Program-made: the position numbers and the translations under genes
Assembly (NCBI GenBank): GCA_041690135.1
Contig: JAWLHY010000001.1
Location: forward strand, 32,001 to 96,000
Reading direction: 5' to 3'
DNA length: 64,000 nucleotides
Origin: Armatimonadota bacterium
GTDB taxonomy: Bacteria > Armatimonadota > SYMT01
Shown: in pieces, positions 28,939 through 45,998 of the stretch
Numbering within the stretch: position 1 is the stretch's first letter
Layout of the letters: each line of letters opens with the position of its first letter
Notes under the pieces: generated by a model
Database searches by the model: none
Told to the model about the DNA's origin: nothing
Seen by the model: only the letters and a program-made list of their open reading frames with translations

Positions 28939-31182
28939 ATGTCTTCCAGCCCCAACGAGGTTCTCGAGATCCGCTCCCCCGTCTCACTCGACGAGACGAT
29001 GAACATCCTGCGCCGCCGTAAGGGGGTGTTCCTCCAGGCGTTCATCGCGGTGGTGGCGGTCGGCATCCTGGTGACGGCTTCCACCAAGCCGGTCTATCGC
29101 ACCTGGGCGCGGCTCCTGGTGCCGGCGGGAAGCCGTTCCGTGAGCCTGGTCGACTCCGCCAACCCGATCGCCGCGATGGTGGCGGCGGCCCAGCCGGATA
29201 GCCTCGCCACGCAGCTACAGATCCTGCAAAGCCGCCCCTTTCTCGCCGATGCCCGAAAGGCGGCCGGTCTCGCGGACCGGCCCGACGTCGTCCCGGCGAC
29301 GGTCCGTATCGAAGCGCTCGAGGAATCGAGCGTCATCCAGATCACCGTGGAGGGGGGAGACCGCCAGGGCATCGCGGACCTGGCCAACGCCGTGGTGGAC
29401 CTCCATCTGGAGCGGACGGACCTCCTCGCCACCACGGGTCTCCAGGATACGCTCACGTTTGTCCGCAAGGAGAAGGAGAAGGCGCGGAAGGGATTGGTGG
29501 CGGCCGAGCAGCGCCTGGTCCAGTTCCGTAAGGAGCACCGGATCGTCCAACTGGCGGCAGAGCAGGAGGCCCAGGCCAAGGAGTATGTCGAGCTGGAAGC
29601 GCGGGTCCGGGAGTTGGAGAGCAACATCCTCACCACCCGTGCCCAGGTGCAGGAGCTGCGTACCCGGCTCTCGCGCATGCCCATCGACCTGGTCCAGGAA
29701 TCGACGAAGGAGAACCCCCGCGCAGCGCGCCTGCAGGAGCGACTGGATGAGCTGAGCGCGCAGCGGGAGGAGCTGCTGACCGACTTCAAGCCCACCAGCA
29801 GCCGCGTGCAGGCGCTCGACAGACAGATAGCGGCCCTCCGGCTACAGCGGGAAGGCGAGCCGGAGCAACTCACGGTACGGACGCATTCCCCCAATCCCGA
29901 GCGACCGCCGCTGCAGGCGGAGCTCGCCCGCCTGGAAGCTCAGCTCCGCGGCCACGAAGTCGCCTTCAACGCCGCACGCGCCCGGCTGCAGACGCGAAAG
30001 GCGCTGGTGGATAACCTGGGCCCCTGGGAGGTGGAGCAGACGCGTTTGGTCCGGGAGCGCGACCAGGCCCAAACGGCGGACACACAATTGGCGGAGCGAC
30101 TCCGGAACCTGGAGATCCAGGTCAACGCCCGCGTGCGCACCGCCCGCATCCTCGAGCGAGCCTTCGTTCCGGGAACCCCGGTGCTGCCCCGGAAGGCCGA
30201 CAACCTGGTTATCGCGGTGGCCGCCGCGCTCTGCTTCGGCATCGGTATGGCCTTCCTGGCGGAATACCTGGACGACCGGGTGAACACCCCCACCGATTTC
30301 GATCGCTTCTCTCACCTGCCGCCGCTCGCCACCGTTCCCCAGATCGGCAGCGGCGAGACCGCACTGCTCTCCGCGATGCCGGTCTACTCCCACGTGGCCG
30401 AAGCGTATCGCGCCCTTCGCTCGAGCATCATGTTCGCCGCGCTGGATCACCCGGTGCGGCGGCTCCTGGTGACGAGCGCCAACAAGAGCGAGGGGAAGAC
30501 GCTGACCTCGGTCAACCTCGCTACGGCCATGGCGCTCGACGGCAAGCGCGTAATCCTGGTCGATGCCGACCTCCGGCGACCCCACGTGCACGCCACCCTC
30601 GGACTGCCGGGAGCACCCGGCCTCTCGGAGGTTCTGGTCGGTGTTAAGACGGTAGATGAAGTGCTGCACCCCACCGGGACGGAGAACCTCCAGGCGATCT
30701 GCGGCGGCGCCATTCCGCCGAACCCGGCGGAGCTTCTCGGCTCGCCGGCTTTCGACCGGCTCATGACGGATCTGGAGGCACGCGCGGACGTCGTGGTCTT
30801 CGACAGCCCGCCCTGCGTGCCGGTGACCGACCCCCTGCTGCTCGCGGCCCGCATGGATGGCGTGGTGCTGGTCGTTCAGGTGGGCCAGACCCGCCGGGCC
30901 GCCATCCGTCATGTGGAAGAGCAACTGCGCCGCGCCCGCGCCCGCGTACTGGGGGTCGTCTTCAACCGCTTCGAGCAGCGAAAACACGGCTACTACCAGC
31001 ACTACGGCTACGGCTACTACGGAGATACCGCGCCTGCGAACGGCCAGAGAGTGAAGGTCCCCGGTCTGAACGCCCGGGGGGCTAACGGACATGCGAGCAA
31101 CGGGCACAGCCCGAACGGGAAGGAGCACTCCGAGGACCAACCGGTCCGGGGGCTTCCCGAGAGCACGGGGCGGGAGAACTGA
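28939..31182 (+). CDS. Polysaccharide co-polymerase / tyrosine autokinase (Wzc/GumC family)
   Basis: Two TMs flanking a coiled coil, AEAYRALRS, Walker A SANKSEGKT, VDADLRRP, FDSPP and C-terminal Tyr cluster GYYQHYGYGYYG. Confidence 0.93.
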   Translation: MSSSPNEVLEIRSPVSLDETMNILRRRKGVFLQAFIAVVAVGILVTASTKPVYRTWARLLVPAGSRSVSLVDSANPIAAMVAAAQPDSLATQLQILQSRPFLADARKAAGLADRPDVVPATVRIEALEESSVIQITVEGGDRQGIADLANAVVDLHLERTDLLATTGLQDTLTFVRKEKEKARKGLVAAEQRLVQFRKEHRIVQLAAEQEAQAKEYVELEARVRELESNILTTRAQVQELRTRLSRMPIDLVQESTKENPRAARLQERLDELSAQREELLTDFKPTSSRVQALDRQIAALRLQREGEPEQLTVRTHSPNPERPPLQAELARLEAQLRGHEVAFNAARARLQTRKALVDNLGPWEVEQTRLVRERDQAQTADTQLAERLRNLEIQVNARVRTARILERAFVPGTPVLPRKADNLVIAVAAALCFGIGMAFLAEYLDDRVNTPTDFDRFSHLPPLATVPQIGSGETALLSAMPVYSHVAEAYRALRSSIMFAALDHPVRRLLVTSANKSEGKTLTSVNLATAMALDGKRVILVDADLRRPHVHATLGLPGAPGLSEVLVGVKTVDEVLHPTGTENLQAICGGAIPPNPAELLGSPAFDRLMTDLEARADVVVFDSPPCVPVTDPLLLAARMDGVVLVVQVGQTRRAAIRHVEEQLRRARARVLGVVFNRFEQRKHGYYQHYGYGYYGDTAPANGQRVKVPGLNARGANGHASNGHSPNGKEHSEDQPVRGLPESTGREN

Positions 31183-31183
31183 G

Positions 31184-32443
31184 ATGAAGCGTGTGGGACA
31201 GCCCCTGCGACTCGGCGGCATTTCCTGGGTCCTGGCCGCCCTGGCCCTGCTGGCGACGATTGTTCCGGCCGCGGCGGCGGAAGGGGCACCCGCACAGGAG
31301 GCGCCCCCACCACCCGGCCGGACCACCGAGACCGCCGCCTACCGCTTACAGCCCGGTGATGAGGTGTCGATCGCGGTTCTCCCCCGGAAGGAGTTCGACT
31401 GCGCAGGCCTCATCCTGCCGGATGGGATGCTCTACCTGCCGAACATCGGCGGCTTGAAGGCGGCGGGAATGACGATTCCGGAGCTCGCCGGGGCCGTGCG
31501 GAAGGTGCTGGAGGAGGAACTGGTGGAGCCCCGCGTCACTGTGGCGCTGGCTCGCATGGCCCCGCCACCCGCCGAGAAGCCCGCTAGACCCGGCACCATC
31601 ACCCTGATCGGCGCCGTGCCGCGGACCGGACCGCTCCCCCTCGAAATGGGTCTCCGCGTCCGGCGGGCTCTCGACCTGGCGGGCGGCACGGACCCCGATG
31701 CCGACCTCACCCAGATCGTCATTCTGCACGCCGACCTCACCCGCACCCTGGTGGACCTCTCGACCGACGAGCGGGTCTCCAACCCGGCTCACAACCGCCT
31801 GTTGCAGGACGGCGACTCGATAGAGATCCGCCGGAAGCCGGTGGTGCGGAAAGAGGCCTCGCGCGTGCGGATCAGCGGAGAGGTGCAGACCCCCGGCCCG
31901 TACGATTTGCGGGACGGGATGACGCTGGAAGACCTCATCATCGCCGCGGGCAAGCTGCGACCCCTGGCGGACGTGGAGCGCGTCGAGTTGCATCGCCCCG
32001 GAAAACCGGTGACCTTTTTCAATCTGGAGGCGCTCCGCAAGCAGGGCCCTGCGGGCAAGGTCCTCCTCCAGTCCGGGGACGAGGTCTACGTCCACGAGCA
32101 GGCGAGCCGCATCGCCCTGATCGGCGCCGTGCAGAACCCGGGGCCCCGCGCCCTGAAACCGGGCCTCAAGCTCCGAGAGCTGATGGTCGGGGGCGCGGCG
32201 GACATTGTCTCCGCGGCCAACCCGGCGGTGGTCGACCTGGGCGCCGTCCAACTCCTGCGCGGTGGGAAACCCGCCCTGAAACTGAACCTGCGTGAGGTGC
32301 TGCGCAAGCCCGAGCACCGCGACAACATCGCGCTCGAGAGCGGCGACGTGCTGTTCTTCCCGCCGCGGAAGGGGCTGCGTCGCAACCCGCTGGATTACGT
32401 AGGCCAGCTCGGCTCGCTCGGTTTTCTCTTCGGGCTATTCTGA
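31184..32443 (+). CDS. Polysaccharide export protein (Wza/Poly_export plus SLBB repeats)
   Basis: Signal peptide, YRLQPGDEV...ILPDGMLYLPNIGGLKAAGMTIPEL and three SLBB-like repeats; starts 1 bp after the wzc stop. Confidence 0.88.
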   Translation: MKRVGQPLRLGGISWVLAALALLATIVPAAAAEGAPAQEAPPPPGRTTETAAYRLQPGDEVSIAVLPRKEFDCAGLILPDGMLYLPNIGGLKAAGMTIPELAGAVRKVLEEELVEPRVTVALARMAPPPAEKPARPGTITLIGAVPRTGPLPLEMGLRVRRALDLAGGTDPDADLTQIVILHADLTRTLVDLSTDERVSNPAHNRLLQDGDSIEIRRKPVVRKEASRVRISGEVQTPGPYDLRDGMTLEDLIIAAGKLRPLADVERVELHRPGKPVTFFNLEALRKQGPAGKVLLQSGDEVYVHEQASRIALIGAVQNPGPRALKPGLKLRELMVGGAADIVSAANPAVVDLGAVQLLRGGKPALKLNLREVLRKPEHRDNIALESGDVLFFPPRKGLRRNPLDYVGQLGSLGFLFGLF

Positions 32444-32456
32444 AAGATTGGGCCGC

Positions 32457-35400
32457 ATGAGTTCTCCCTCTCCGACGGGCCGGCGACACCCCGGCTGGGT
32501 GCTGCTGATCGCCGGTTTACTGGCCCTGTTCCTGGCCGGAGCGCCCGATGCCGCCGCGCCGGCCGCCGTGCGACTCCACCTGCGCTCCGTCGGCAGCTTC
32601 GATCCCCGGACCCAGACCTCACGGGTGCCGTCGGACCTCTCCGTGATGGGCGCCCAGCCCACGCGGGCGCCGGCTCGGCTCGGAGCGTCGCAACTCTGGA
32701 TCGTGCAGTTCGCGGGTCCCGTCCGGCCCAGTTGGCAGGAGCTGCTGCTCGACGCGGGGGCGGAGATCCTGCGATACCTGCCGGACTACGCTTACGTGGT
32801 GCGGGTCGCCGACCGTCGTCTTCCCCGCGTCCGCTCCCTCCCGCACGTCCGCACGGTCACGCCGTTCCGCCCCGCCTACGCCCTGAGCCCCCGGCTGGCG
32901 CGCCCCCGCCGCGGGCGCCTGGATGTCCGGATCGAGACCTTCCTGCCGGAGGACGTGCCCAACATCCTGACCTGGGTCCGCAAGCTTGGCGGGCGGGTGA
33001 AATCGGTGACCGCCACCGAGGTCGGCTCCATCTCGGCGGATATCTCCTGGGCCGGAGCCCGCGCCCTGACCCGCGTCTACGGCGTGGCATGGGTGGAGGA
33101 GGAGCTGCCCCTCCGCCCCTTCAACGACGTCGGCTCCGGCATCTGCTACGTGCCCGCCACCCGCACGGCCCTGGGCCTCTACGGCACCGGGCAGATCGTC
33201 GCGGTGTCCGACACCGGCCTGGACAATGGGGATGCCGCCAGCGTGGGGATCGGCGCCGCCGGTACGCTGCACCCGGATTTCCAGGGGCGCCTCCTGTCCG
33301 CCACCAGTGTGAACGACCGGGGCACCTGGGACGATCCCGATGGGGCGGGCCACGGAACGCATGTCGCGGGTTCTGTCCTCGGAAACGGCCTCAACTCCGG
33401 CTCCACGCCCGCCCTGCACGCCTACGCCGGCAGCTACGCGGGGGCCGCCCCCGAGGCGCTGCTGGTCTTCCAGTCCAACCTCCGCAACGACGGCAACCTC
33501 TTCAGCGATCAGTACCGGTCGAACCTGTACCGGCTGTTCCAGGAGGCCTACGACCAGGGCGCGCGCATCCACAGCGACAGTTGGGGCGCCAACGTCCAGG
33601 GGATGTACACTTCGGACTCGTATCTCGTGGACCGCTTCATGTGGGAGCGGCAGGACATGCTGTGCGTGTTCGCCGCGGGCAACGACGGTCGCGACACCGG
33701 AACCCCGGACGGCATCGTGGACCTCGACTCGATGGGGGCGCCCGCGACCGCCAAGAACTGCCTGACGGTGGGAGCGACGGAAACCGAGCGGAACATCTAC
33801 AGCACCACCTGGTCGCTCTTCGGCAACCCCTCGCGGTTCACCACCGCGCCGATCAGCACGGACCGCGTGGACACCAGTCGCTTCGGCATGGCCGCCTTCA
33901 GCTCCCGCGGCCCCTGCGACGACCCGGCCGGCGCCTTCGGCGAGCGGCGGATCAAGCCGGACCTCGTGGCGCCAGGCACGGGCATTGCGTCTACCCGGTC
34001 GCAACTGCTGGCGGGTCCATTATCGGAGAACCACTGGGGCCGACTATCCGGTGCAGGCCTGACGACCTCGGGTAGCCTGGAGGATAACTCCTACCACTTC
34101 AATGGCGGGACCAGCATGGCCACGCCGCTGGTCGCGGGAATGGCGGCCCTGACACGTCAGTATTACCAGGAGCGGGAGAACCACCCCAACCCGAGCGCGG
34201 CGCTGCTCAAGGCCACGCTCCTCGCCAGCGCCTTCGATCTCCACTCCCTTCCGGCACGCGGACAATACACCTCTGCCAAGCCCGAGCAGCCCTCCGCCCG
34301 GCCCAACGCCGTCCAGGGGTGGGGGAGAGCCGATCTCCGGAAGGCCCTGAACCCGGCGGCCCACGTCCAGGACTTCAGCGGCGTGGCGTATCCGAACACG
34401 CGCCTGCTGTTCAACGATGTCCGTCCGGGTCTGCGCACGGGAGAACTGGACCTGATCTCCTTCCGGGCGACCACCGGCACCCCCCTGAATATCGTGTTGG
34501 CGTACACGGATGCCCCCGCCACCACTTCCGCCTCCGTAACCCTCGTCAACAACCTGGACCTCCGCATCACGGGTCCGGGAGGCACCACCTGGAACGGCAA
34601 CGGGGTAGACGGAGACAGTCGCAATAACGTGGAGTCGATCGACCTGCCGTCGTCTCTCACCACCGGAACCTACACGATTGCAGTGCGCGGGACCAACGTG
34701 CCGGCCGGACCGCAGCCCTACGCCGTGGTGGTCTACGGCGCCCTGCCTTCCTTCAGCCAGACGCTGCGCACCTCTCCGGCCTCGACTTTCTGCCAGTACA
34801 AACGCTCGGTACAACTGACCGCCCTGTTCAATGGTCAGCCGACCACCGGGGTCGAGTGGAAGGTCCTGAGCGGCGGCGGCGCCGTAACCACGAGCGGCCT
34901 TTACACGGCGCCGCCTTCCGGCACGAGCGCGGTGGTCGAGGCGAAGTTCGGCGCATTGACCGCGTCTACCACCATCACCTTTGAGCCGACTTCGCCGATC
35001 CAACTACCGCCCATTGCGCGGATCGAGATCTTCCACGCTGTCCCCTCGGAGTTGGTCAACATGCGCGTGGGCACGGGCGCCAATCCGGATGATCCGGTTT
35101 GGGAGCACCCCCAGTACAGGACCGGGTTCGGCGACACACCGGGACTGTTGGTGGAAGAGTTCGACCTCGTCGGCGCGCCCTCGGGATCGCTGCCTCCGAA
35201 CACGTCCAACCCGTGGTGGGTGCGGATCGAAGACTTCGGCGTGCCTGGGGAGAACAGCGGGGAGCTGCGGGTCTTCTGGGTCCGCTACCAGGGCGTCCAG
35301 TATTCCGCCTCCACGTTGCCGGCCCCTGTGCCGCCGACTCTGGAAGAGTACACCACCACCATCTTCATCAACCCATCGAACAGCACGGCCGGGCCGACGA

Positions 35401-36374
35401 TCCTGGCCCGGGTGCTCCTCACGCACACCCAGCCGTCGCAGATCAACTCGATCACGGTGGGATGCGGGCCCAACCCCGCCAGTCCCCTGTGGGAGTCGCC
35501 GGCGCAGACCGGGTTGGGCGCGGGGGAGAAGCTCTTCCGGCTGGACGACGCCCCGGCGGAGGCGTTCCCTCCCTCCGCAAACTATCCGTGGTTCGTCAAG
35601 ATCAACGATAACATCGCCAACACCGCCACGGGCCAGGTGAGCGGGTTTACGATCACCTACAACCAGCAGGAGTACATCGCGGGCGACCTGCCCCGGATCA
35701 TTCCGTCCGTGGGCACCGTGATCGCCTGGATCGATCCGCGCCCGCCGACAGTGGCGCTTACGGCGCCGGCACCTGGGGCCTCGCTGACCAACATCTTCAC
35801 CCTCACGGCCGACGCCACGGACAACGATACCGTGAAGCGCGTGGAGTTCTACGTGGATGACCGCCTGCTGGCGACCGACGCAACCCCGCCGTTCGGTTAC
35901 GCCTGGGATACCATGCCGGAGACGAACGGACCGCACCGGATCAGCGTGCGCGCCTTCGATCCGAGCGGGAACACCTCCGAAAGCTACGTCATCGCTTCCA
36001 TCGCCAATGCGGCCCTACGACCCAGCGTGGAGATGACGGTCGGCGAGTGGAGCTTCAATACCTCTACCCGGGAGCTAACGGCCACCGCCACGTTCCGAAA
36101 TGCCGGGCCCGCACACAGCGACGCCTGGCACCTGACGCTGGAGCGGCTGACCCTTTTCGGCACCGGTCCGGGGTTCGCGGGCGAACGCACCCTTTACATG
36201 CAGCCGGTTTCCGGGACGCCAGTGCCGCGCAACCTGGGAACGCTTCCATCCGGTGGGACGACTTCCCTGCAGCTGAAGGTCACCGTCCCCCCCGATGTGT
36301 CCGCCATACCCCGCTGGACGAGCCGGGGCTATTACTTTAATCACGAGACAGGTGGTAATCGCTACTACCTGTAG
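32457..36374 (+). CDS. Secreted S8 subtilisin-like protease (Kp43-type) with P-domain-like repeats and a bacterial Ig domain
   Basis: SDTGLD (Asp), GHGTHVAG (His), FAAGN (oxyanion) and GGTSMATP (Ser); RIKPDLVAPG; Ig domain PPTVALTAP...VEFYVDD...RAFDPSGN. Confidence 0.92.
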   Translation: MSSPSPTGRRHPGWVLLIAGLLALFLAGAPDAAAPAAVRLHLRSVGSFDPRTQTSRVPSDLSVMGAQPTRAPARLGASQLWIVQFAGPVRPSWQELLLDAGAEILRYLPDYAYVVRVADRRLPRVRSLPHVRTVTPFRPAYALSPRLARPRRGRLDVRIETFLPEDVPNILTWVRKLGGRVKSVTATEVGSISADISWAGARALTRVYGVAWVEEELPLRPFNDVGSGICYVPATRTALGLYGTGQIVAVSDTGLDNGDAASVGIGAAGTLHPDFQGRLLSATSVNDRGTWDDPDGAGHGTHVAGSVLGNGLNSGSTPALHAYAGSYAGAAPEALLVFQSNLRNDGNLFSDQYRSNLYRLFQEAYDQGARIHSDSWGANVQGMYTSDSYLVDRFMWERQDMLCVFAAGNDGRDTGTPDGIVDLDSMGAPATAKNCLTVGATETERNIYSTTWSLFGNPSRFTTAPISTDRVDTSRFGMAAFSSRGPCDDPAGAFGERRIKPDLVAPGTGIASTRSQLLAGPLSENHWGRLSGAGLTTSGSLEDNSYHFNGGTSMATPLVAGMAALTRQYYQERENHPNPSAALLKATLLASAFDLHSLPARGQYTSAKPEQPSARPNAVQGWGRADLRKALNPAAHVQDFSGVAYPNTRLLFNDVRPGLRTGELDLISFRATTGTPLNIVLAYTDAPATTSASVTLVNNLDLRITGPGGTTWNGNGVDGDSRNNVESIDLPSSLTTGTYTIAVRGTNVPAGPQPYAVVVYGALPSFSQTLRTSPASTFCQYKRSVQLTALFNGQPTTGVEWKVLSGGGAVTTSGLYTAPPSGTSAVVEAKFGALTASTTITFEPTSPIQLPPIARIEIFHAVPSELVNMRVGTGANPDDPVWEHPQYRTGFGDTPGLLVEEFDLVGAPSGSLPPNTSNPWWVRIEDFGVPGENSGELRVFWVRYQGVQYSASTLPAPVPPTLEEYTTTIFINPSNSTAGPTILARVLLTHTQPSQINSITVGCGPNPASPLWESPAQTGLGAGEKLFRLDDAPAEAFPPSANYPWFVKINDNIANTATGQVSGFTITYNQQEYIAGDLPRIIPSVGTVIAWIDPRPPTVALTAPAPGASLTNIFTLTADATDNDTVKRVEFYVDDRLLATDATPPFGYAWDTMPETNGPHRISVRAFDPSGNTSESYVIASIANAALRPSVEMTVGEWSFNTSTRELTATATFRNAGPAHSDAWHLTLERLTLFGTGPGFAGERTLYMQPVSGTPVPRNLGTLPSGGTTSLQLKVTVPPDVSAIPRWTSRGYYFNHETGGNRYYL

Positions 36375-36495
36375 GGCCAAGAGAACGTTATACTCCTCTC
36401 CGTGGAGTCACACGGAAGCCCCTCGACAGGGCGGGCTATCGGCGCCTGCGACATCTCCCCTCTCCATGCGCAACAATCGGAAATCAAGCAACGCC

Positions 36496-39400
36496 ATGCG
36501 AGCGAACTGGTCTCGAGGATTCACCACGCTGATACTTCTGGTAACGCTGGGGCTCGCCTGGTGCGGCGCGCCCGAGGCCGCGCCGGAGCGGATGCCGTTG
36601 TTCCTGCGGGCGACGGGCGCCTTCGATCCGGCCGGGACGCAGCCGCGGGTTCCGGCCGATCTGAGCCAGGCCGCCGTCCAGAGCTTCAGCGCACGCGCGA
36701 CTAACCGCGTAGCGCCACCCAAAGGGGTGGGCCACTGGATCGTACAGTTCCGCGGGCCGGTTCTCGAGCACTGGAAAGAGGCGGTCGGTGAGTCCGGGGG
36801 ACGCCTGCTCCAGTATCTGCCCCAGAATGCGTTCATCGTTCGCATTGCCAACCGCGAAGTTCCCAAGGTCCGGCGCCTGCCGTACGTCCGCGCGGTCACC
36901 CCGTTCCATCCGGCCTACGCCCTTAGCCCGGCACTGCCGCGCCCGAGCCGAAGCCGGCTTAAAGTGAACATCCGGACCTTCTCACCCGAGGACCTGTCGG
37001 TGGTCCAACTGGCAGCCCGGCGCATGGGAGGTCGCATCACCTCCGTCTCGGCTGCCGGCGACGGTATGCTGACGGCCGATATCACCTCGGCCGCCATCCG
37101 CGCCCTGGCGCGCACCTTCGGCATCGCCTGGATCGAGCCGCTTCCCGCGTACCGGGTTCATTCCAGCCGGGCCAACGGGACCACGCGGGTCGACACCGCC
37201 CGGCAGCAAGTCAGCCTTTACGGCACCAACCAGATCGTGGCGGTAGCCGATACCGGTCTCGACCAGGGCCCCGCGGACGCCGTGGGCCTGGGAGCATACT
37301 CCCAGCACCTCCACCCGGACTTCACCAGCCGCATCCTGCAGGTCCAGGATCTGAACCTGCGGGGCGGATCGGACGAAGTGGTCTGGAGCGACCCCAACGG
37401 GCACGGCACGCACGTAGCGGGCGTGCTCCTGGGGAGCGGACGGGTCAGTGGCGCCGAGCCGGCGATCCAGTTGTATAACTCCAAGCTTTCCGGAGTCGTG
37501 CCGGAGGCGAACCTGGTGCTTCAATCGATCCTGGATGAAGACGGAAACATCCTCGGCCATCCGGAAGTCCAGGACCTCTACTTCATGTTCCAGCGGGCCT
37601 ACGATGCGGGCGCCCGGGTCCACAACAACAGTTGGGGCGCCGAGAACCGGCTGCACCAGACGCAGTTGGGAATTGCTCCCCAGTACGCGGGGCAATACTT
37701 CCAGGCCTCGCAGGCCGTGGACCGGTTCACCTGGGACCACCCGGACATGGTCATCGTCTTCTCCGCCGGCAACGGTGCGGAGGATCGAGACGGCAACGGG
37801 ATCATGGATTACGGACACACGCGGAACTCCATCGAAATTCCCGCCACCGCCAAGAATTGCATTGCCGTGGGTGCCACGGAGAACAGTCGACCCGAAGTGG
37901 ACGTGAACTACGGGCAACTGATGCCGTTTGCCTCCCTTTTCACGCCGATCGTGGAGGACCGGGTCGCGAACTTCGTCCACGGAATGGCGGCCTTCAGCGC
38001 CCGCGGCTACTGCGCCGACCCCGTCGGCAATTCGGAAGTGGCCCGCATCAAGCCAGACATCGTCGCCCCTGGCACGTATGTCGCGGGGGCACGTACGAGC
38101 GTGGCGTTTTTCGACGAGAACTTCGAAGGCGCCCAGCCCGGCGGCCTTCCGCAGGGCTGGACCCGCAGCGGAATTGCGGCAGTGACCAACGTGGACGGGC
38201 ATCCTACGCCGGGGCAATCGGCAGGCTTTGGGAACCCGGTCAGCGGATACCCGGTACTGGAACGGAACGGCACCGAGACCTTGGGTCTACCACTCCACCC
38301 GGACCTGGACCAGGCCTCTTGCCTCTATGTCAGTTACTGGACCAAGTACAATCTCCGCTCGGGTGATCAGGTGAAACTGTCTTACGGCTCGACGATCCTG
38401 GAATCCTCGATCGTCGGAACCAGCGACGGGGCCTGGGTCTACCGCACCGACGTGATCCGGCCCCTCCAACCCTCCGTCGACCGTATCACCTTCAACCTGA
38501 TCGGCGGAAGCACGAGCCAGGGCACCTACTACTTCCTGATCGACGACGTCCAGGTTCGGCCGGGGATCGGTAACGTCCTGAGCAATGTCGACCCGGGCTC
38601 CCTCGGGACCGCCCTCAATGAGGCGTATCAGTTTGCCTCCGGCACCAGCGTGGCGGCAGCGCAGGTCTCGGGCGCGGCCGCCCAGGTCCGCCAGTGGTAT
38701 CAGGAAGTGATGAACCACGGCCAGCCCAGCGCCGCCCTGATCAAGGCGACTCTGCTGACCAACGCCGCCGACCTGTTCAACACCGCGGACCAGGGCCAGT
38801 ACCCCTCCCATCCGGAGCAGCCGAGCCCGCGGCCGAACCCGGTCCAGGGATGGGGAAGGTTGGACGTGGCCAACGCCGTGCTCCCGGGAGTAGACGACCC
38901 GGACCGGACGGTGCTCTTTGCCGACGTATCGCCGGGTCTCGGTACCACCGAGTTCGATCAGTACCGGATCACGGTGTCCGGCGGCAACCGATTGAGCGTT
39001 GGGCTGGTATGGACTGATCCCCCCGCATCCCAGGCTTCCGGGGTGACGCTGGTCAACAACCTGGATCTCCTGGTGGAGACCCTGGATGGCGCGAAGTACC
39101 GCGGCAACGGGGTTGGCGGGGCGGGCGACGATCGCAACAACGTGGAAACCGTCGATGTCTCTGAACCGGGAACCAGAACGTATCTGGTTACCGTCACGGG
39201 GACCAACGTTCCCCTCGGCAAACAACCTTACGCGCTGGTGATCGGCGGCCGCGTACGCTACGCGCCCGAGAGCGGACTCCGCATCTCGCCATCCAAGGCG
39301 CAGTGCCAGTTTGGACGCAGTTACCGGTTCTCGGCCTATTTCCAGGGCATCCCCACCACCGGCGTGGAGTGGAAAGTGGCCACGGATAAGGGCGGGTTCA

Positions 39401-40953
39401 TCGACGCGAACGGCGTCTACACCGCCCCCAATGCCGGAGGTCCCGTGGAGATCCAGGCAGCTTACACGCTGCCGGGGACTTCCACCACCTACACGGCGAG
39501 CGCGCAGGTCGAACTGGTCGGCTTCCCGCTGCCGGACACCACTCCCAGTGGACACGTGGTGGTGAGCTACCCGGGCGCGCAAAGCGACATCAGCGTCGTG
39601 GAATTCGGCCACGACAGCGGCACCCCGCCTCCGGGCCCACCCGCGGTCGCCGAATACCTGACCGATAACAAGCCCGGCGACCCCACGGTGCCGGGTACCG
39701 GGGGCATGTTCACGCGCACGTTCCCACTCCAGAACTTCCCGTCCGGGTCGCTCCCGCCGAAGCCGGGCGAGTACTGGTGGGTCCACGTGCGGAACACCGG
39801 CGCCGCGGACGCCGAGGTGCCCACCGCGTGGCTAGTTTACGAGGGGCGGAAGTACACCTCCGATAGCGCGGTCACCGTGCCCGCCGGCACCGACCGCTAC
39901 ATCTACATCAACCCGACCACCGAGCGGCCACTGCCCGAGGTGTACGCCTACGTGGAGATCTACCATCCAAGGCCGAGTGACCTGACGAAGATCATCGTGG
40001 GAACGCCGGAGAACGGAGAGCGCGGTGCCTGGACCTCCGCGGTCGAGACAGGAGCGTCCGCCACGTCGAACATGCTCACCCTCGGGTTCGACCTGACAGA
40101 TGCCCCGGAGGGCTCGCTCCCGCCGGACGCGGACAACTCCTGGTTCGTTCGGATCGAGGACAGTGTGAGCGGGGACGTGGGGGTGCTGCGGAAGTTCTAC
40201 ATCCGCTACAACGGGGCTTACTACCGGGCCCGTCACCTGCCGCAGGGCCTGCGCGACGGTTCGTCCGGAGGTCCGGGCGTGGGGATCGGCTGGATCGACT
40301 ACACCCCCCCGGCCGTACGGATCACGGAGCCTGCACACGCCAGCACCATTACCGGAGCGGTTACGCTCCGGGCCGAGGCGACCGATAACGCCTGGGTGGC
40401 CCGGGTGGAGTTCTCGGTGGACGACCGCCTGCTCGGGGTCGACACCGAAGCGCCCTATGAGCTTACCGGGGATACGTACTTCGAGACCAACACCTGGCAT
40501 CGCGTGGTGGCGCGCGCCTTCGACGCCTCGGGCAACTGGAACGAGCATTCGATCGACGTATACACCGGCAACGGCGGCACGCGACCCAACGTGGCGGTGA
40601 ACATGGGCAACTGGCACTTTGACCCCACCACGCGCGAGTTGACCGGCACGATCACCCTGCGCAACACCACAATCACCGGCACCCGGGCCTACAACACCAC
40701 GCTCCAGCGCGTAACGCTCTACGGAACGGGGCCATCGTTTACGGGAACGCGCAGGTTGTACATGCAGCCCGTGGTTCCGCCGCCGCTGCCGCTCCGCACG
40801 CCGGGGGCCAACCCGGGGGAGATCGCACCAGGAAACTTCGCGAGCTTCCAGCTCAAGGTAGTCGTGCCGCCGGAGATCACCGCCGTCCCGCGCTGGAGCG
40901 CCACCGGTTTCTATTCGGACGACCCGGTGGCGGGCAGCTACTATCATCTCTAA
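36496..40953 (+). CDS. Second, paralogous secreted S8 protease with an inserted domain
   Basis: ADTGLD, HGTHVAG, FSAGN and SGTSVAAAQVSG; same domain order and C-terminal domain as the upstream paralog. Start moved to ATG 36496. Confidence 0.9.
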   Translation: MRANWSRGFTTLILLVTLGLAWCGAPEAAPERMPLFLRATGAFDPAGTQPRVPADLSQAAVQSFSARATNRVAPPKGVGHWIVQFRGPVLEHWKEAVGESGGRLLQYLPQNAFIVRIANREVPKVRRLPYVRAVTPFHPAYALSPALPRPSRSRLKVNIRTFSPEDLSVVQLAARRMGGRITSVSAAGDGMLTADITSAAIRALARTFGIAWIEPLPAYRVHSSRANGTTRVDTARQQVSLYGTNQIVAVADTGLDQGPADAVGLGAYSQHLHPDFTSRILQVQDLNLRGGSDEVVWSDPNGHGTHVAGVLLGSGRVSGAEPAIQLYNSKLSGVVPEANLVLQSILDEDGNILGHPEVQDLYFMFQRAYDAGARVHNNSWGAENRLHQTQLGIAPQYAGQYFQASQAVDRFTWDHPDMVIVFSAGNGAEDRDGNGIMDYGHTRNSIEIPATAKNCIAVGATENSRPEVDVNYGQLMPFASLFTPIVEDRVANFVHGMAAFSARGYCADPVGNSEVARIKPDIVAPGTYVAGARTSVAFFDENFEGAQPGGLPQGWTRSGIAAVTNVDGHPTPGQSAGFGNPVSGYPVLERNGTETLGLPLHPDLDQASCLYVSYWTKYNLRSGDQVKLSYGSTILESSIVGTSDGAWVYRTDVIRPLQPSVDRITFNLIGGSTSQGTYYFLIDDVQVRPGIGNVLSNVDPGSLGTALNEAYQFASGTSVAAAQVSGAAAQVRQWYQEVMNHGQPSAALIKATLLTNAADLFNTADQGQYPSHPEQPSPRPNPVQGWGRLDVANAVLPGVDDPDRTVLFADVSPGLGTTEFDQYRITVSGGNRLSVGLVWTDPPASQASGVTLVNNLDLLVETLDGAKYRGNGVGGAGDDRNNVETVDVSEPGTRTYLVTVTGTNVPLGKQPYALVIGGRVRYAPESGLRISPSKAQCQFGRSYRFSAYFQGIPTTGVEWKVATDKGGFIDANGVYTAPNAGGPVEIQAAYTLPGTSTTYTASAQVELVGFPLPDTTPSGHVVVSYPGAQSDISVVEFGHDSGTPPPGPPAVAEYLTDNKPGDPTVPGTGGMFTRTFPLQNFPSGSLPPKPGEYWWVHVRNTGAADAEVPTAWLVYEGRKYTSDSAVTVPAGTDRYIYINPTTERPLPEVYAYVEIYHPRPSDLTKIIVGTPENGERGAWTSAVETGASATSNMLTLGFDLTDAPEGSLPPDADNSWFVRIEDSVSGDVGVLRKFYIRYNGAYYRARHLPQGLRDGSSGGPGVGIGWIDYTPPAVRITEPAHASTITGAVTLRAEATDNAWVARVEFSVDDRLLGVDTEAPYELTGDTYFETNTWHRVVARAFDASGNWNEHSIDVYTGNGGTRPNVAVNMGNWHFDPTTRELTGTITLRNTTITGTRAYNTTLQRVTLYGTGPSFTGTRRLYMQPVVPPPLPLRTPGANPGEIAPGNFASFQLKVVVPPEITAVPRWSATGFYSDDPVAGSYYHL

Positions 40954-41025
40954 CGGGAAGCACTCGCCAGGGGCCGCCGTGACCTCCCGGCACACCTTCG
41001 ACGCTACCGCGCCCGGTGGATGACC

Positions 41026-41034
41026 TGTTACAAT
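41026..41034 (+). promoter_or_regulatory. Candidate extended -10 promoter for the peptide gene
   Basis: TG-T-TACAAT about 130 bp upstream of ATG 41163; no clear -35. Confidence 0.3.
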
Positions 41035-41162
41035 CAGGCAGGACCTTGGGCTCCGACCCGGCAGGGCAGAACACCGGCGGATGTTTTGAACACTCCGCAG
41101 TGGAACGTGATGGGCAAGTACTTCGACACAAGCGGAAAGCGGTGCAAGCGGTGAGGGAACGC

Positions 41163-41453
41163 ATGGCCACGGAAATCCACAAGACCGGAGAGGAGCATCC
41201 CGAGCGACCTGATATTCCCGGAGAGAACGCCGGCAGGTGCGGAGGCCGCGCTCCTTATCAGGCGCCGTGCCTGCGCCGGCTAGGAAACATCGCGGATGTG
41301 ACGAAGGGAACCGGCACCGGTCCCGGCGTGCTGGTGGGCGGGTTCGGAGCCGGCCAGGAGAAAGAACAGATCCGCATCTACGGGGACTACTCGACCGACC
41401 AGGTTGGCTCCATCCTCAACGGCCCTCCGGAGAATCCTCCGGAGGGGCGGTAA
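41163..41453 (+). CDS. RiPP precursor-like peptide with a lasso-type leader (96 aa)
   Basis: GAGGG RBS. Residues 32-49, YQAPCLRRLGNIADVTKG, match the lasso leader consensus YxxPxLxxxGxxxxxT-x/G. Lies directly upstream of the kinase and nucleotidyltransferase. Confidence 0.75.
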   Translation: MATEIHKTGEEHPERPDIPGENAGRCGGRAPYQAPCLRRLGNIADVTKGTGTGPGVLVGGFGAGQEKEQIRIYGDYSTDQVGSILNGPPENPPEGR

Positions 41454-41481
41454 CGGTAAGAGCGGGATGTGGGCCGCCGGA

Positions 41482-42450
41482 ATGGATGCGACGACCTTCT
41501 TTGACGAGCGGCGGTTCCATGGCCTGCGGGTGCGGATAGCCGCCGATTCCCCGGCGCTGCGGTCCGCCCTTCTCCGGGAGTTTCCCCACGAGGACCTGCC
41601 TCAACCGCAGGGTCCGGAACGCGGAATGGTGGAGATCCGGGCCGAAGCGGAAGGCGCGGGGGAAGCTTTCCCGGAGCCCCCGGCGCCGCTCCAACCCGGA
41701 GCCGTCGGGCTGGCCTATCGGGTGACCCGGGACCGCCTCTGGCTCGAGACACGCACCGGATCCCGGGGCTGCTTCGACCTCCAACTTCGAACCGCGAGGC
41801 TCCGGATGGTCTCCACCGCCGACGTGGAAGCGGACACCGCCGCCCTCCTGGGTGTGGGGCTGCCCTACCTTTACCGCGAGTTGGGCCTGTACCCGGTACA
41901 CGCGTCTGCCGTCCTGGCAAACCGCACCCCGGTGCTGCTCGCCGGTGTCAGCGGCTCGGGAAAGTCGACCACCGCCGCGCTGCTCGCCCGGAGTGGCTTC
42001 GGTTTCTTCGCCGACGACCTGGTGCTGCTGGAGCCGACCGGAGACACGCTCACGCTGCGCGGGGTTCCGCGCCCTCCGCGGCTCGACGCAGCCGCTCGTC
42101 GACGGCTGGAGAGTCTTGCAACCGGCCCTGCACCCGCCTCCGCCCGGAGCGAGCCGGAGACGTTCGCCGCCCGGCCCCCGGTCCTGCTGCTCTTCCCCCA
42201 GGTAGAACACATTCGCGACACCCGTCTGGAGCTCCTCACCGGTCCCGAGGCAGTCGGCGCGCTGATCCGCTGCTCGCTCCTGATGGGCGAGAAGGAGGCC
42301 ACTCAAAAGCATCTCTCGGCGCTGGCGGCCCTCGCCACGGAGGCTTCCGCGTACCGCCTGCGGTTGGGAGAAGGGGTAGAGGCCCTTCCGGGCCAATTAC
42401 GCAACCTCTTGGCTGCCGCGTCAGCTTCCGAAAGTGGGCGAGTGATCTAG
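41482..42450 (+). CDS. HPr kinase-related P-loop kinase (peptide-modifying type)
   Basis: YPVHASAV (His), Walker A GVSGSGKST and FFADDLVLL; alternative start at 41467. Confidence 0.82.
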   Translation: MDATTFFDERRFHGLRVRIAADSPALRSALLREFPHEDLPQPQGPERGMVEIRAEAEGAGEAFPEPPAPLQPGAVGLAYRVTRDRLWLETRTGSRGCFDLQLRTARLRMVSTADVEADTAALLGVGLPYLYRELGLYPVHASAVLANRTPVLLAGVSGSGKSTTAALLARSGFGFFADDLVLLEPTGDTLTLRGVPRPPRLDAAARRRLESLATGPAPASARSEPETFAARPPVLLLFPQVEHIRDTRLELLTGPEAVGALIRCSLLMGEKEATQKHLSALAALATEASAYRLRLGEGVEALPGQLRNLLAAASASESGRVI

Positions 42451-42453
42451 GAG

Positions 42454-43623
42454 ATGAGAGAGCGTTCGCTCGAAATCGAGCTCCTCGCGCTGACGGATGC
42501 ATTGGGGGGCGGTGAAACGAAGCATGCCGCGGTGTGTGACTTCAGCTTGGCGGAGTGGCAAGGGTGGTACCACCGCGTGGAAGAGCATGGCCTGGCGCCT
42601 GGACTGTACCGCTTGTTGGAGAGACCTCGATGGAGCGGCCTCCCCGCCGAACAGCGGGCCGAATGCCGGGCGCGCTACCTGGAGCAAACGGCTCGTACCC
42701 TGGGAGCCCGTCGGCAGTGCACAGAAATTCGCGAGTGCCTGGAGAACGCTTCCATTCCCGTCCTCCCACTCAAGGCACTGGCATTTTCCGGCACGCTTTA
42801 CGATGATCCCGGCTTGCGGCAATTCGGAGACCTGGACCTCCTGATTCCGGAAGAGGCTGCCGGGGAGGCCGAGGCCCGGCTGCATGCGCTTGGGTATCGC
42901 CCGCTGGCGGCCTTTACTTCCCGGGAAGAGGCGGCGCTCCACGCCCGGTTCGCGCACCTCTGCCCGCTCGCTCGCCCGGGAGGTCTACCGGTGGAGTTGC
43001 ACACGCACCTGCTGAAGGACCGCGGCGACGACCGGATGGCGGTACGGGACACCTGGGATCACGCCGGCATCGACGCCGCGGGAACCCGCCGGATGCGACC
43101 GGAGCACGAATTCGTGTATGCCGCCGCCCATTACGCGGGCCATCTGCACCTGGGCGGCGCACGGTTGAAGTGGGCGGCGGACCTGCTCCGGATGGCCCGG
43201 TATGAAGAAGCCCTCGATTGGGAGCCGGTACGGGGGACGGCGGAACGCTGGAGACTCACGCCGTACCTGGCCCCGGTGATGCATGCCCTGCGAGATCACT
43301 GGAACCTGCCGGTGGGGAAGTGGCCCTCGGCCGGCGGGGTGCTGGGATCGGAACAGCTCACCGCCAGCCCCCAACATTCGGCCTCGCGACTAGCCCCCTC
43401 AGCCCTGGCTCGCTTGCGGCAAGTACGAGAACTGCCGGGATGGGGCCGTCGCGCGCGCTATTTCTGGCACCTCGCCTTCCCCGAGGCCGAACATTTGCGC
43501 TTCCGTTACTCGCTGCCCGCGGGAGCGCCCGTAACGGGAGTGCGCCTGCTCCACCCCCTGCGCCAGGCGAGCCGGTTCGTCCGCGGTTGGGTGGGCTCCC
43601 ACAAGGAAGGGTCCGCCAGGTGA
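42454..43623 (+). CDS. Nucleotidyltransferase family protein (NTP_transf_5-like)
   Basis: VLPLKALAF...LYDDPGLRQFGDLDLLI, VELH and LKWAADL motifs; 3 bp after the kinase stop. Confidence 0.85.
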   Translation: MRERSLEIELLALTDALGGGETKHAAVCDFSLAEWQGWYHRVEEHGLAPGLYRLLERPRWSGLPAEQRAECRARYLEQTARTLGARRQCTEIRECLENASIPVLPLKALAFSGTLYDDPGLRQFGDLDLLIPEEAAGEAEARLHALGYRPLAAFTSREEAALHARFAHLCPLARPGGLPVELHTHLLKDRGDDRMAVRDTWDHAGIDAAGTRRMRPEHEFVYAAAHYAGHLHLGGARLKWAADLLRMARYEEALDWEPVRGTAERWRLTPYLAPVMHALRDHWNLPVGKWPSAGGVLGSEQLTASPQHSASRLAPSALARLRQVRELPGWGRRARYFWHLAFPEAEHLRFRYSLPAGAPVTGVRLLHPLRQASRFVRGWVGSHKEGSAR

Positions 43624-43714
43624 TCTCGACAACCGAACTTCATCAGGCTACTATTCATGGTAGCCGGCAACCGGCCGTTCCGAACCGGAGCGAGCCCTCG
43701 ACCGGGAGTTTCTT

Positions 43715-45526
43715 ATGACGGCAACGCTCCGGAATCTCCGCCCCCACCTGCCCCTGCTGATCGCCGCGCCAATCCTGCTGGCGCCGGTGCTTTTCGTACC
43801 GCAAGAGGGGCCATGGCAGGGGCTGCGCTGGTTCCTGGCGCAGGCGGTAGGGCTCGTCTTCCTCGTGTACCTGGCCGCCCGCGCGAGAGGTTCCGTCCAG
43901 GAAGCACGTTCTTTCTTCCTCACCGGGCCCAACCTGCCGATCCTGCTGCTGCTGGCCTGGGCGGGTGCTTCCTTTCTCACCTCCGCGCCCGCCGCGGGAC
44001 GGGGACGCGAGATGGCCCTGGTGGAACTCCTGCGCCTGGGTACGGGGGCGATCCTTTACTTCGCGGTCGCCTACGGAAACTCCCGGCGCAGCGCTTTGAA
44101 CGCCTGGACCCATCTGCTGTTGGGCTGCGCGGTCCTGGCCGCCCTGGCGGGGCTCGTCACCAGCACCCAGCAAGAAATCGGATGGGCGACCGGGGCGTAC
44201 GCCAACCCCCAACTCCTGGCGGGATTCCTCGTGCTGCTGCTTCCCTTCGCCGGGGTGTACGCCCTTCAGGGCCGGATGGACCTGCGCCGCCTCCTGGCGA
44301 CCGTCGCTCTCGTGTTCGTGGTGGGAGCGCTGCTGGTCACCCGGAACCGGAGCGCCTGGCTGGGATCCCTGACGGGGCTCATCCTCCTTGGCGGCCTCTG
44401 GCTGCGGTCCGTCTCCCTGGCCGAGCTGGCCCGCCAGCGGCACCGGTGGATGATGCCCCTCATCATCGCAGCCGTGGGAGGCGGGTTGTTCCTGACGTTT
44501 AAGCCAGATACCGGCACCCTGGTCGAAGCCCGCGCCGCCACGCTGCTCGCGCCGGGACAGGAACCGTCGTTCCAGTGGCGCCTGCGCATGTGGGCGGCCG
44601 GCTGGGACATGGTGACCGCCCGGCCGCTGACCGGCTGGGGCGTGGGCTCGTTCCCGCGATTGGTGGGGGACTTCCTGCCGGAGGCACCCGCGACGGTGCA
44701 GGTGGAAGAGGCCGGCCCTTCGCTGGCCAGCGTTCCCCACAACGAGTATGTCCAACTGGCCGCCGAGTTGGGCGTACCGGGCCTATTGCTTTATCTCGCC
44801 CTGTTCCTCGCCTTCTTCCGGCTGGGACTCCGGTTCACCCGCACCGCCGAGAGTGAGACGCGAAAGTGGCTCGCCATCGCCTGCATGGGAGCTGTGGCCG
44901 CGCAGAGCATCGATGCGCTGGGCAACCCAGCCTGGCGGTTTGGGGACGTGGCCCCCTTGTTCTGGCTGGTGCTCGGCCTCGGCGTGGCGGCTACCCGAGC
45001 CCAGCAGGCGGGAGAAGCGAGCCCCATCGCCGAGCCGGGCGAGACGACGGGGCTCGCACCCCGCACCCCCATCTGGCGCTGGAGCTGGCAGGCGGCCTCC
45101 CTGGTCTGCGCCGTCGGCCTGGGCGCCTCCGCGTTCGGCGCCACCGTCGGCGGCCAACCGGGCATCCTCCGCGGGTACTACGACCCACGCGCGACGCCCG
45201 ACCTGGTTCTCAGCCGCACCACCCTCAGCTTCGGAACCGTCCGGGTAACGGGGCGGCGACGCCCGCCCGTCGCCGTGAAGACGCTCCGGATCACGTCCGG
45301 TGGCGAGCGCGGCGGCCTGATCCTCGGCCACCTGACCCTGGCTCCCGGATCTCCCTTCGAGCTGATCGGCGGCAACGACTTCCGCCTGGTGAAGCCCCGC
45401 TCCCAGAACTTCCGGTTCCGCTTCCGTCCCACCCAGCCGGGCACCTACTCGGTTCCCGTGGTCGTGACGTGCAACGATCCGGAAACGCCGGAGGTGGTGG
45501 TGACCCTGGTGGGGACAGCGTTGTGA
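43715..45526 (+). CDS. O-antigen ligase / Wzy_C family membrane protein with a C-terminal Ig-like (ASH/choice-of-anchor D-like) domain
   Basis: More than 10 TMs; YANPQLLAG, TRNRSAWLG, RLRMW...RPLTGWGVGSF and HNEYVQLAAELGVPGL motifs; C-terminal LSFGTV...FRPTQPGTYS...NDPETPEVVVTLVG. Confidence 0.85.
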   Translation: MTATLRNLRPHLPLLIAAPILLAPVLFVPQEGPWQGLRWFLAQAVGLVFLVYLAARARGSVQEARSFFLTGPNLPILLLLAWAGASFLTSAPAAGRGREMALVELLRLGTGAILYFAVAYGNSRRSALNAWTHLLLGCAVLAALAGLVTSTQQEIGWATGAYANPQLLAGFLVLLLPFAGVYALQGRMDLRRLLATVALVFVVGALLVTRNRSAWLGSLTGLILLGGLWLRSVSLAELARQRHRWMMPLIIAAVGGGLFLTFKPDTGTLVEARAATLLAPGQEPSFQWRLRMWAAGWDMVTARPLTGWGVGSFPRLVGDFLPEAPATVQVEEAGPSLASVPHNEYVQLAAELGVPGLLLYLALFLAFFRLGLRFTRTAESETRKWLAIACMGAVAAQSIDALGNPAWRFGDVAPLFWLVLGLGVAATRAQQAGEASPIAEPGETTGLAPRTPIWRWSWQAASLVCAVGLGASAFGATVGGQPGILRGYYDPRATPDLVLSRTTLSFGTVRVTGRRRPPVAVKTLRITSGGERGGLILGHLTLAPGSPFELIGGNDFRLVKPRSQNFRFRFRPTQPGTYSVPVVVTCNDPETPEVVVTLVGTAL

Positions 45527-45539
45527 TGCGTGAAGCGTT

Positions 45540-45584
45540 AGGCTTACGTGCGAGGCGGCTGCGGGGGCAGGGGGTTCGCCTCGG
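45540..45584 (+). repeat. 45-bp palindromic repeat (copy A)
   Basis: AGGCTTACGTGCGAGGCGGCTGCGGGGGCAGGGGGTTCGCCTCGG, related to three copies at 47558-47750. Confidence 0.8.
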
Positions 45585-45795
45585 ACATGGGTGCGTAGTG
45601 CGTAAAGCGTGTTGCGTAAGAGACTTGCAGTAGCCGGGTTGCCGGCCACTGCACCGAACTCGAGCCCAGGTGTGGCGTTTGATGTGCGGGAGGTAGGGCA
45701 GGCTCGCCGTTGTGTCCCTCGCACCGAACCCGTACCCGTATTGCCGTGTGGGACCCGTGGTTAACGGCCTGTGCTCTGCCCTTGTACCCGCAGAT

Positions 45796-45820: not shown

Positions 45821-45998
45821 GGGCCATGGACAATTACCCGTCGTGCCATGTGGGACTCGACATCTATGTTGGTCTACGAACCAAGACAGGCGAACCGCCC
45901 GGACCTTATTGGGCCACGCTCTTGTTTGTTTCCCGACATCGGGTGCCGAGCAGATATGATTGTAGGACGAACGGCGCCTGTCTCCGACGTCAATCTTG

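Follow-up and report, generated by a model that had tools for sequence, protein, structure and literature searches.

A candidate module for a linear phosphate-modified ribosomal peptide beside a Wzy_C-Ig gene in an Armatimonadota genome

Introduction

Does a row of co-oriented genes that combines a putative peptide precursor with polysaccharide-export, protease and membrane-protein genes represent one system, and what would such a system produce? This question is raised by a locus of an Armatimonadota bacterium (GTDB lineage Bacteria; Armatimonadota; SYMT01) that we analysed within a 64,000-nt stretch, referred to as the window, of contig JAWLHY010000001.1 (assembly GCA_041690135.1, positions 32,001 to 96,000; G+C content about 66%). 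All coordinates given here are those of the window. The array under study (28939-45526) comprises eight genes on the + strand, encoding in order a Wzc-like protein, a Wza-like protein, two S8 proteases (S8a and S8b), a small peptide with a lasso-type leader, an HprK-like kinase, an NTP_transf_5 nucleotidyltransferase (NTase), and a Wzy_C protein with an Ig-like domain (Wzy_C-Ig). An earlier note on this DNA had listed these genes and positions and had suggested that a linear peptide is phosphorylated and nucleotidylated, and then coupled to or exported with a surface glycan; all eight genes are present at the listed coordinates, and Pfam and NCBIfam bore out the families of the seven genes other than the peptide gene, for the kinase with sub-threshold scores.

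Judging from sequence, we give somewhat better than an even chance to the reading that four of these genes form a module making a linear phosphate-modified ribosomal peptide, which would be a Gram-negative-type variant of the linear polyphosphorylated peptides (LPPs; PMC13381572). The four genes, separated by 13, 3, and 91 nt, are:

41163-41453, + strand: precursor peptide, 96 aa; leader motif at residues 32-49 (nt 41256-41309), followed by the core
41467-42450, + strand: HprK-like (PEPCK-fold) peptide kinase, 327 aa, assigned by sub-threshold HprK matches, AlphaFold model, and Foldseek
42454-43623, + strand: NTP_transf_5 nucleotidyltransferase-fold enzyme, 389 aa (PF14907, 146 bits)
43715-45526, + strand: Wzy_C (O-antigen ligase/polymerase family) protein with C-terminal Ig-like domain, 603 aa (PF04932)

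The precursor peptide gene is real and conserved

Several observations speak for a genuine gene behind the 96-aa peptide. Its G+C content by codon position (0.69/0.53/0.74) resembles that of the neighbouring kinase and NTase genes, a GAGGG sequence occurs 5' of its ATG, two homologues are present in the protein database (P0008, 66% identical; P0009, 65% identical), and its leader motif is unlikely to have arisen at random. This motif, Y..P.L...G.....T.G, spans residues 32-49 and results in a match of 16.8 bits (E 0.005) to the NCBIfam model lasso_leader_L3 (NF033521), just under the cut-off of 19. Across the six frames of the window, a strict regular expression for the leader matched a single time, at 41256, directly upstream of the kinase gene. 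In the sequences of other loci, 633,749 bases in total, the same expression gave three matches, never in a small open reading frame (ORF) beside a kinase gene. The chance expectation within the 300 nt upstream of the kinase is about 1.4e-3; a chance origin of the motif is unlikely.

Comparison with P0008 identified the region of the leader motif as the best conserved part of the peptide, with 20 of 23 residues identical between positions 32 and 54, compared to 31 of 42 in the rest of the core and 15 of 31 in the N-terminal leader. The peptide has no hydrophobic segment, and a PDB sequence search returned no match. Following the T-x-G junction, the core starts with G-T-G-T-G-P-G-V-L and would span 48 residues, the last of which is Arg. 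The macrolactam ring of a lasso peptide requires Asp or Glu at core position 7-9, and neither residue occurs there.

The kinase and the NTP_transf_5 enzyme look active

The kinase displayed only a sub-threshold match to Hpr_kinase_C (22 bits, cut-off 33). Its AlphaFold model (pLDDT 89.5) was matched by Foldseek to PEPCK and HprK/P folds, and H145, the Walker A residues G165/K166, and the pair D183/D184 are invariant across 30 relatives. The wider family is large (4983 representatives at E<=1e-3, 239 of them at E<=1e-10), while the subfamily is rare (6 representatives at E<=1e-30, including the kinase itself). The NTase gene starts 3 nt past the kinase stop codon. In its product R122, D126, and D128, the latter two forming a D-x-D motif, are invariant across 17 sequences; a PDB sequence search yielded solely NTase-fold matches at E of about 0.25. 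Both enzymes lack hydrophobic segments.

Functional data on the pseudomycoidin enzymes are available for comparison: PsmK needs D158/D159, the counterpart of D183/D184 in the kinase, and the D134A/D136A variant of PsmN is inactive (PMC6993621). The invariant Asp residues in both enzymes thus match pairs whose mutation inactivates PsmK and PsmN, and both enzymes look active.

Wzy_C-Ig as the leading candidate for a partner of the module

The product of the last gene matched PF04932 with 78.5 bits (cut-off 31.7) and contains at least 10 hydrophobic segments, as expected of a polytopic membrane protein. Residues 493-590 weakly resemble an Ig-like choice-of-anchor-D domain (17.9 bits, under the cut-off of 45). 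The Wzy_C family fit would be compatible with an O-antigen ligase, a Wzy polymerase, or a protein O-oligosaccharyltransferase alike, as the sequence does not discriminate among these.

For each of the peptide (66%), the kinase (62%), and Wzy_C-Ig (81%), the best homologue is listed on a 12,915-bp contig. Because the same size is recorded for all three, we took this to be one contig, on which the nearest relative apparently keeps the three genes in synteny. A repeat that begins at the Wzy_C stop codon marks the array's 3' end:

45523-45591, + strand: hairpin repeat resembling repetitive extragenic palindromes, family D1, 69 nt

Three further copies of the family D1 repeat follow in tandem (47541-47757) directly after the next gene, which encodes an Nramp protein, while no copy occurs within 28.9-45.5 kb. 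If the peptide module has a dedicated partner, Wzy_C-Ig is the best candidate, given the 91-nt gap to the NTase gene, the synteny that seems to exist in the relative, and the repeat right after the stop codon.

A Pfam scan of the 76 ORF translations across the 64 kb detected no glycosyltransferase, flippase, priming transferase, or ABC transporter, and no Asn_synthase, Transglut_core3, PqqD, or S26/S24 peptidase. A PqqD hidden Markov model (HMM) that was built from eight proteins of related loci did not match any of the six frames of the window either (best E = 3). The absence of glycosyltransferase, flippase, priming transferase, cyclase, B2 protease, and PqqD/RRE genes, as reported in the earlier note, therefore holds for these 76 ORFs and the PqqD HMM. 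Pairwise tblastn and phmmer searches of the window using 25 locus proteins (cyclase, B2, glycosyltransferases, ABC, S26, Wzy_C) returned nothing relevant, with a sensitivity too low for this result to count, as the Wzy_C positive control failed as well.

Distant kinase loci and the question of a lasso peptide

Species-representative genomes were searched with a seven-sequence alignment of the kinase, resulting in at least 44 loci with partial matches at 25-52% identity. These loci belong to many phyla, with no Bacillota among the matches listed, a set that is not to be read as a distribution. ORFs within about 5-6 kb of the kinase were then analysed with Pfam in 35 of the 44 loci; the nine contigs omitted are all <=4.7 kb. 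The following genes were counted near the kinase relatives:

NTP_transf_5: 18 of 35 loci by Pfam, 24 of 35 with tblastn added
Glycosyl or sugar transferase: 22 of 35 loci by Pfam (raw count)
PqqD: 13 of 35 loci by Pfam
Asn_synthase: 2 of 35 loci by Pfam
Transglut_core3: 2 of 35 loci by Pfam
Asn_synthase and Transglut_core3 together: 1 of 35 loci (L021) by Pfam
Wzy_C: 2 of 35 loci by Pfam, one of them just under the cut-off
ABC_tran: 2 of 35 loci by Pfam
Peptidase_S8: 0 of 35 loci by Pfam, 0 of 44 by tblastn
wzc and wza together: 1 of 44 loci (L020)

Co-conservation, which the earlier note had named as a check on its model, thus appears partial: peptide, kinase, and Wzy_C-Ig apparently occur together in the nearest relative, whereas in the distant loci S8 is absent and both wzc plus wza (1 of 44) and Wzy_C (2 of 35 scanned) are rare.

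The leader fits the lasso consensus Y..P.L...G.....T.G, with the near-threshold model match described above, and among the related loci L021, which carries Asn_synthase, Transglut_core3, and a sulfotransferase, is a canonical lasso cluster. Both observations would be accounted for if the array were a decayed lasso cluster, or a split one with B1, B2, and C encoded elsewhere. We regard this as hardly credible. Core positions 7-9 are free of acidic residues, and the core, which would be 48 residues long, is shared by both homologues in conserved form. The 64 kb contain no B or C gene, and relatives with these genes, which a decayed lasso cluster would lead one to expect, are represented among the 35 distant loci by L021 only, where B2 and C occur together. 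In addition, the catalytic residues of the kinase and the NTase are intact, and there is therefore no sign of decay. The proposal of a linear rather than a lasso product gains support from the non-acidic core positions, the lack of cyclase, B2, and RRE genes in the window, the conserved core, the invariant Asp pairs, and the precedent of the LPP peptides.

Two features of the distant loci were recorded in passing. Seven PqqD proteins beside kinase relatives (L002 9406-9840, L006 9078-9554, L011 9057-9494, L016 3166-3600, L028 8973-9488, L039 9121-9546, and L042 9120-9545) possess a conserved C-terminal tail that begins with [F/Y/W]xxPx[L/M], similar to a lasso or LPP leader, and continues with a conserved D-P-I-H...G-W-P stretch; these proteins may be RREs fused to their own leader-like peptide. 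In L022, a single 785-aa ORF (8216-10573) contains three PqqD domains, with the kinase match in the same frame according to coordinate arithmetic, and is located among NTP_transf_5, GT2, and ABC genes. Fusions of the kinase to a glycosyltransferase, suspected in L005 and L002, were rejected by the same arithmetic, which placed the kinase match and the long ORF in different frames.

The module resembles LPP clusters in part

LPP clusters, as described in the original report (PMC13381572, Nat Commun 2026), encode an HprK-like kinase and a precursor that measures 35-200 aa and has a YxxPxVLxHQxIxFETxxS leader. Further core genes encode a discrete RRE (LppB), an archaeal-type signal peptidase (LppS, SpI type), an MsbA-like pump (LppD), and an uncharacterised NTP transferase (LppN); a cyclase is not among them. 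The type cluster, lppA-K-B-S-D-N, is that of Paenibacillus alginolyticus. The clusters lie inside capsular polysaccharide loci of Bacilli and are, according to the authors, restricted to Bacillota. LppK adds several phosphates to core Ser3 of LppA, and the leader is cleaved after Thr-1. LPP expression increases along with that of an exopolysaccharide (EPS) gene at a distance of five locus tags. According to the authors, who speculate about a role in biofilms, neither the final products nor the functions of LPP and paeninodin are known (PMC13381572). Besides this report, we found no paper in the literature tying such modules to polysaccharide loci.

The locus in the window shares several of these features. 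The precursor, at 96 aa, is within the LPP size range, has a Y..P leader, and carries Thr at the aligned cleavage position; alignment on Y..P places Thr47 on Thr-1 and Thr50 on Ser3. An HprK-like kinase and an NTP transferase are encoded and a macrolactam synthetase is not. In both cases the setting is that of a polysaccharide locus, near a tyrosine autokinase gene. In contrast to the LPPs, described as occurring in Bacillota only, the host is a diderm, as it encodes the outer-membrane protein Wza, and the array additionally comprises the Wzy_C-Ig gene and two large S8 proteases.

Likewise, the systems for the phosphorylated and phosphoglycosylated lasso peptides paeninodin and pseudomycoidin have in common with the window a lasso-type leader, an HprK-family kinase whose Asp pair is the same, and an NTP_transf_5-type enzyme that shares the D-x-D motif. 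These differ from the window by their cyclase, B1, and B2 genes, a core that can form a ring, and a C-terminal Ser. The kinase also belongs to the same superfamily as the uncharacterised HprK-related kinases A/B (TIGR04352, TIGR04353, TIGR04355). In related loci, the kinase is paired with a PqqD-type chaperone and NTP_transf_5, while no PqqD is encoded in the window. The cut-offs of the kinase A/B models were reached by none of 22 kinases tested (18 from the loci and 4 from protein searches).

Several observations weigh against the reading as an LPP-like module. The scores of the kinase (HprK_rel_B 42.1 bits, HprK_rel_A 36.5 bits) are far under the curated cut-offs of 200. Compared by eye to the LPP logo, the leader has 4 of 10 specified positions exact (Y, P, I, T), with V replaced by L and S by T at two others. 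No counterpart of LppB, LppS, or LppD was found among the 76 window ORFs, and without an RRE, an SpI-type peptidase, or an exporter in the window, it is unexplained how the leader would be read and cut and the product exported. LppK rejects an S3T variant (PMC13381572), and the window peptide has Thr at this position; paeninodin-type kinases need a C-terminal Ser (review PMC8498205), and the window peptide ends in Arg. The synteny that appears to exist in the nearest relative is derived from the equal contig size. The count of glycosyl and sugar transferases near kinase relatives (22 of 35) is raw, to be read as a count and not as an enrichment. Finally, as S8 is found in 0 of 44 and Wzy_C in 2 of 35 related loci, distant relatives do not keep the wider array together as a unit.

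With no RRE gene nearby, the leader must be recognised in another way than in LPP and lasso systems. The locus appears LPP-like in its working; it should not be filed as an LPP cluster, however, since the RRE, SpI peptidase, and pump are missing in the window and phospho-site and C-terminus differ. The notion of an undescribed system is accordingly narrowed: the core of peptide, kinase, and NTase is of an already known kind and matches the LPP family (PMC13381572), while the gene set around the core, lacking RRE, SpI, and exporter and including Wzy_C-Ig, two S8 proteases, Wza, and Wzc, does not match.

A different substrate for the two enzymes was considered as well. The kinase-NTase pair of related loci is often flanked by glycosyltransferases on both sides (e.g., L006, L015, and L028), no small precursor gene matching the strict leader expression was detected beside the kinase in the 44 distant loci, and LppN was without activity on the peptide in a heterologous host (PMC13381572). 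Kinase and NTP_transf_5 might therefore act on a glycan or a lipid-linked intermediate, with the small protein as a regulator or adaptor. We consider this very unlikely: all characterised members of the kinase group phosphorylate peptide (PMC8498205, PMC13381572, and PMC6993621), 13 of the 35 loci encode a PqqD peptide-binding domain along with the kinase, and the leader motif is located exactly at the site expected for a substrate gene and is the best conserved part of the peptide.

The wzc, wza, and S8 genes may be neighbours only

The upstream half of the array consists of:

28939-31182, + strand (ORF open from 28633): Wzc-like polysaccharide co-polymerase/tyrosine autokinase (TIGR01007, GNVR, P-loop)
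31184-32443, + strand (ORF open from 31091): Wza-like outer-membrane polysaccharide export protein (Poly_export, SLBB/SLBB_2)
32448-36374, + strand: S8a, secreted subtilase, 1308 aa (Peptidase_S8, Big_7, signal-like N-terminus)
36466-40953, + strand (ORF open from 36295): S8b, paralogue of S8a (Peptidase_S8, Big_7)
40954-41162: intergenic gap between S8b and peptide gene, 209 nt, the widest in the array; possible internal promoter

With refined starts, the gaps between the eight genes are, in order, 1, 13, 91, 209, 13, 3, and 91 nt, and wzc, wza, and S8a are closely spaced with one another. The Wzc-like protein, with a likely start at 28939, matched TIGR01007 (168 bits, cut-off 108), GNVR (27.8 bits), and P-loop models, with Wzz (21.5 bits) remaining under its cut-off. 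It has two hydrophobic segments and a Tyr-rich C-terminal tail. The Wza-like gene begins 1 nt past the wzc stop codon, and its product has an N-terminal signal-like hydrophobic segment and matches to Poly_export (57 bits) and SLBB/SLBB_2 (66-70 bits), both over the cut-off. The pair thus comprises the tyrosine autokinase of the polysaccharide co-polymerase 2a (PCP-2a) type and the outer-membrane polysaccharide export (OPX) protein of a Wzx/Wzy-dependent locus.

With Wzx/Wzy-dependent capsule and EPS loci, including XrtA/PEP-CTERM loci that have a putative O-glycosylation ligase (TIGR03097), the array shares the Wzc autokinase, the Wza exporter, and a Wzy_C protein. It differs from them in that no flippase, priming transferase, or glycosyltransferase was found in the 64 kb and in that a trio resembling genes for a peptide made on the ribosome and modified after translation (RiPP) is inserted. 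All XrtA-system models remained under their cut-offs in the window.

S8a gave 156 bits for Peptidase_S8 and 68 bits for Big_7, with PPC (21.7 bits) under the cut-off; the values for S8b, which also has a signal-like N-terminus, were 125 and 52 bits. The two proteases are 40-46% identical over their full length, the alignment being interrupted at S8b residues 603-771, within the protease region. Their similar Tyr-rich C-termini are not a membrane anchor. A role of these proteases in leader removal or matrix remodelling, as the earlier note had it, found no support, as S8 occurs in none of the related loci by Pfam (0/35) or tblastn (0/44).

It is possible, though rather doubtful in our view, that the array contains neighbours and not a system: peptide, kinase, and NTase would make a free LPP-like peptide, and Wzc-Wza, the S8 proteases, and perhaps Wzy_C-Ig would carry out ordinary envelope functions alongside. 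The 209-nt gap in front of the peptide gene and the distant loci are in line with this, S8 being absent from all 44, wzc and wza occurring together in one of 44, and Wzy_C in just two of the 35 scanned. Moreover, the peptide enzymes are cytoplasmic and the proteases secreted, with no exporter among the window ORFs. On the other hand, the genes are co-oriented with short gaps, and the repeat and hairpin elements follow Wzy_C and the next gene with none inside the array. Wzy_C-Ig, the best conserved of the three proteins in the nearest relative (81%), is seemingly syntenic there. Glycan genes are located near the kinase relatives in 22 of 35 loci (raw count), and LPP clusters likewise reside in capsule loci. 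Of the earlier model, the weakest element is the tie of wzc, wza, and the S8 genes to the peptide, given the 209-nt gap between S8b and the peptide gene and the lack of an S8 counterpart in related loci.

Proposed mechanism

For the favoured module of peptide, kinase, NTP_transf_5, and Wzy_C-Ig, we propose the following steps. The 96-aa precursor would be translated in the cytoplasm; the gene is conserved and its product has no hydrophobic segment. The kinase would then phosphorylate a hydroxyl residue of the core, possibly repeatedly, by analogy with LppK, PadeK, and PsmK. Thr50 would be the best candidate for the phospho-site, since it is invariant in the three peptides and aligned with the phosphorylated Ser3 of LppA, with Ser77 and Ser83 as alternatives; paeninodin-type kinases phosphorylate the C-terminal Ser of a linear precursor (review PMC8498205). 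NTP_transf_5 would subsequently place a sugar or nucleotide-derived group on that phosphate, as suggested by PsmN, which is required for the addition of one or two hexoses to the phosphate (PMC6993621). The modified peptide might then be passed to the envelope, where Wzy_C-Ig could join it to an undecaprenyl-linked glycan or use it alongside such a glycan, a step suggested by synteny and family chemistry only. As the weakest step, and by way of speculation, wzc-wza-S8a-S8b might be co-transcribed with the module and provide polymer export and extracellular trimming of the leader. Coupling of the peptide to a glycan remains plausible given the apparent Wzy_C-Ig synteny and the glycosyl or sugar transferases in distant loci; no result places the peptide with a glycan.

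A more far-reaching version appears quite unlikely to us, in which the modified peptide itself would be the glycan acceptor or a lipid-free carrier, to which Wzy_C-Ig joins polysaccharide, and the conjugate would leave via Wzc/Wza and be trimmed by the S8 proteases. The idea draws on an analogy: a peptide-Ser/Thr-(poly)phosphate-sugar resembles undecaprenyl-pyrophosphate-sugar. If true, the same logic would apply to kinase and NTP_transf_5 modules, with or without PqqD, among glycosyltransferases in many phyla, and it would explain the location of LPP and paeninodin clusters in capsule loci. The authors of the LPP report leave this co-location unexplained and suspect that the NTP transferase LppN needs a partner from outside the core cluster (PMC13381572).

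With regard to the favoured module, the locus would represent a stripped-down LPP-like version in a diderm, in which Wzy_C-Ig is the single adjacent candidate for such a partner and is apparently co-inherited. The distant loci suggest that kinase/NTP_transf_5 modules in glycan loci are spread far wider than Bacillota, which is a lead rather than a measured distribution.

Other features of the window

The window holds three copies of a conserved element that measures about 80 nt, contains a long hairpin, and has no Rfam match; they are located at 25744-25824 (- strand), 45993-46073 (+ strand), and 49020-49079 (+ strand). The first two copies are an inverted pair with 78% complementarity that flanks 25.8-46.0 kb and encloses the whole array together with two upstream genes. 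One of these (25790-27238) encodes a 482-aa protein with a CxxCH motif and no family match, the other (27259-27837) a Tll0287-like protein. The two genes are probably a haem-related pair that is separate from the array. Transposase genes (YhgA-like and DDE) are located near both ends of the window, at 4510-5598 and 63367-63999. Further genes encode a CHAT-domain protease (17297-19420) and a 2037-aa protein (51239-57352) whose sole match is a weak one to secretin-N.

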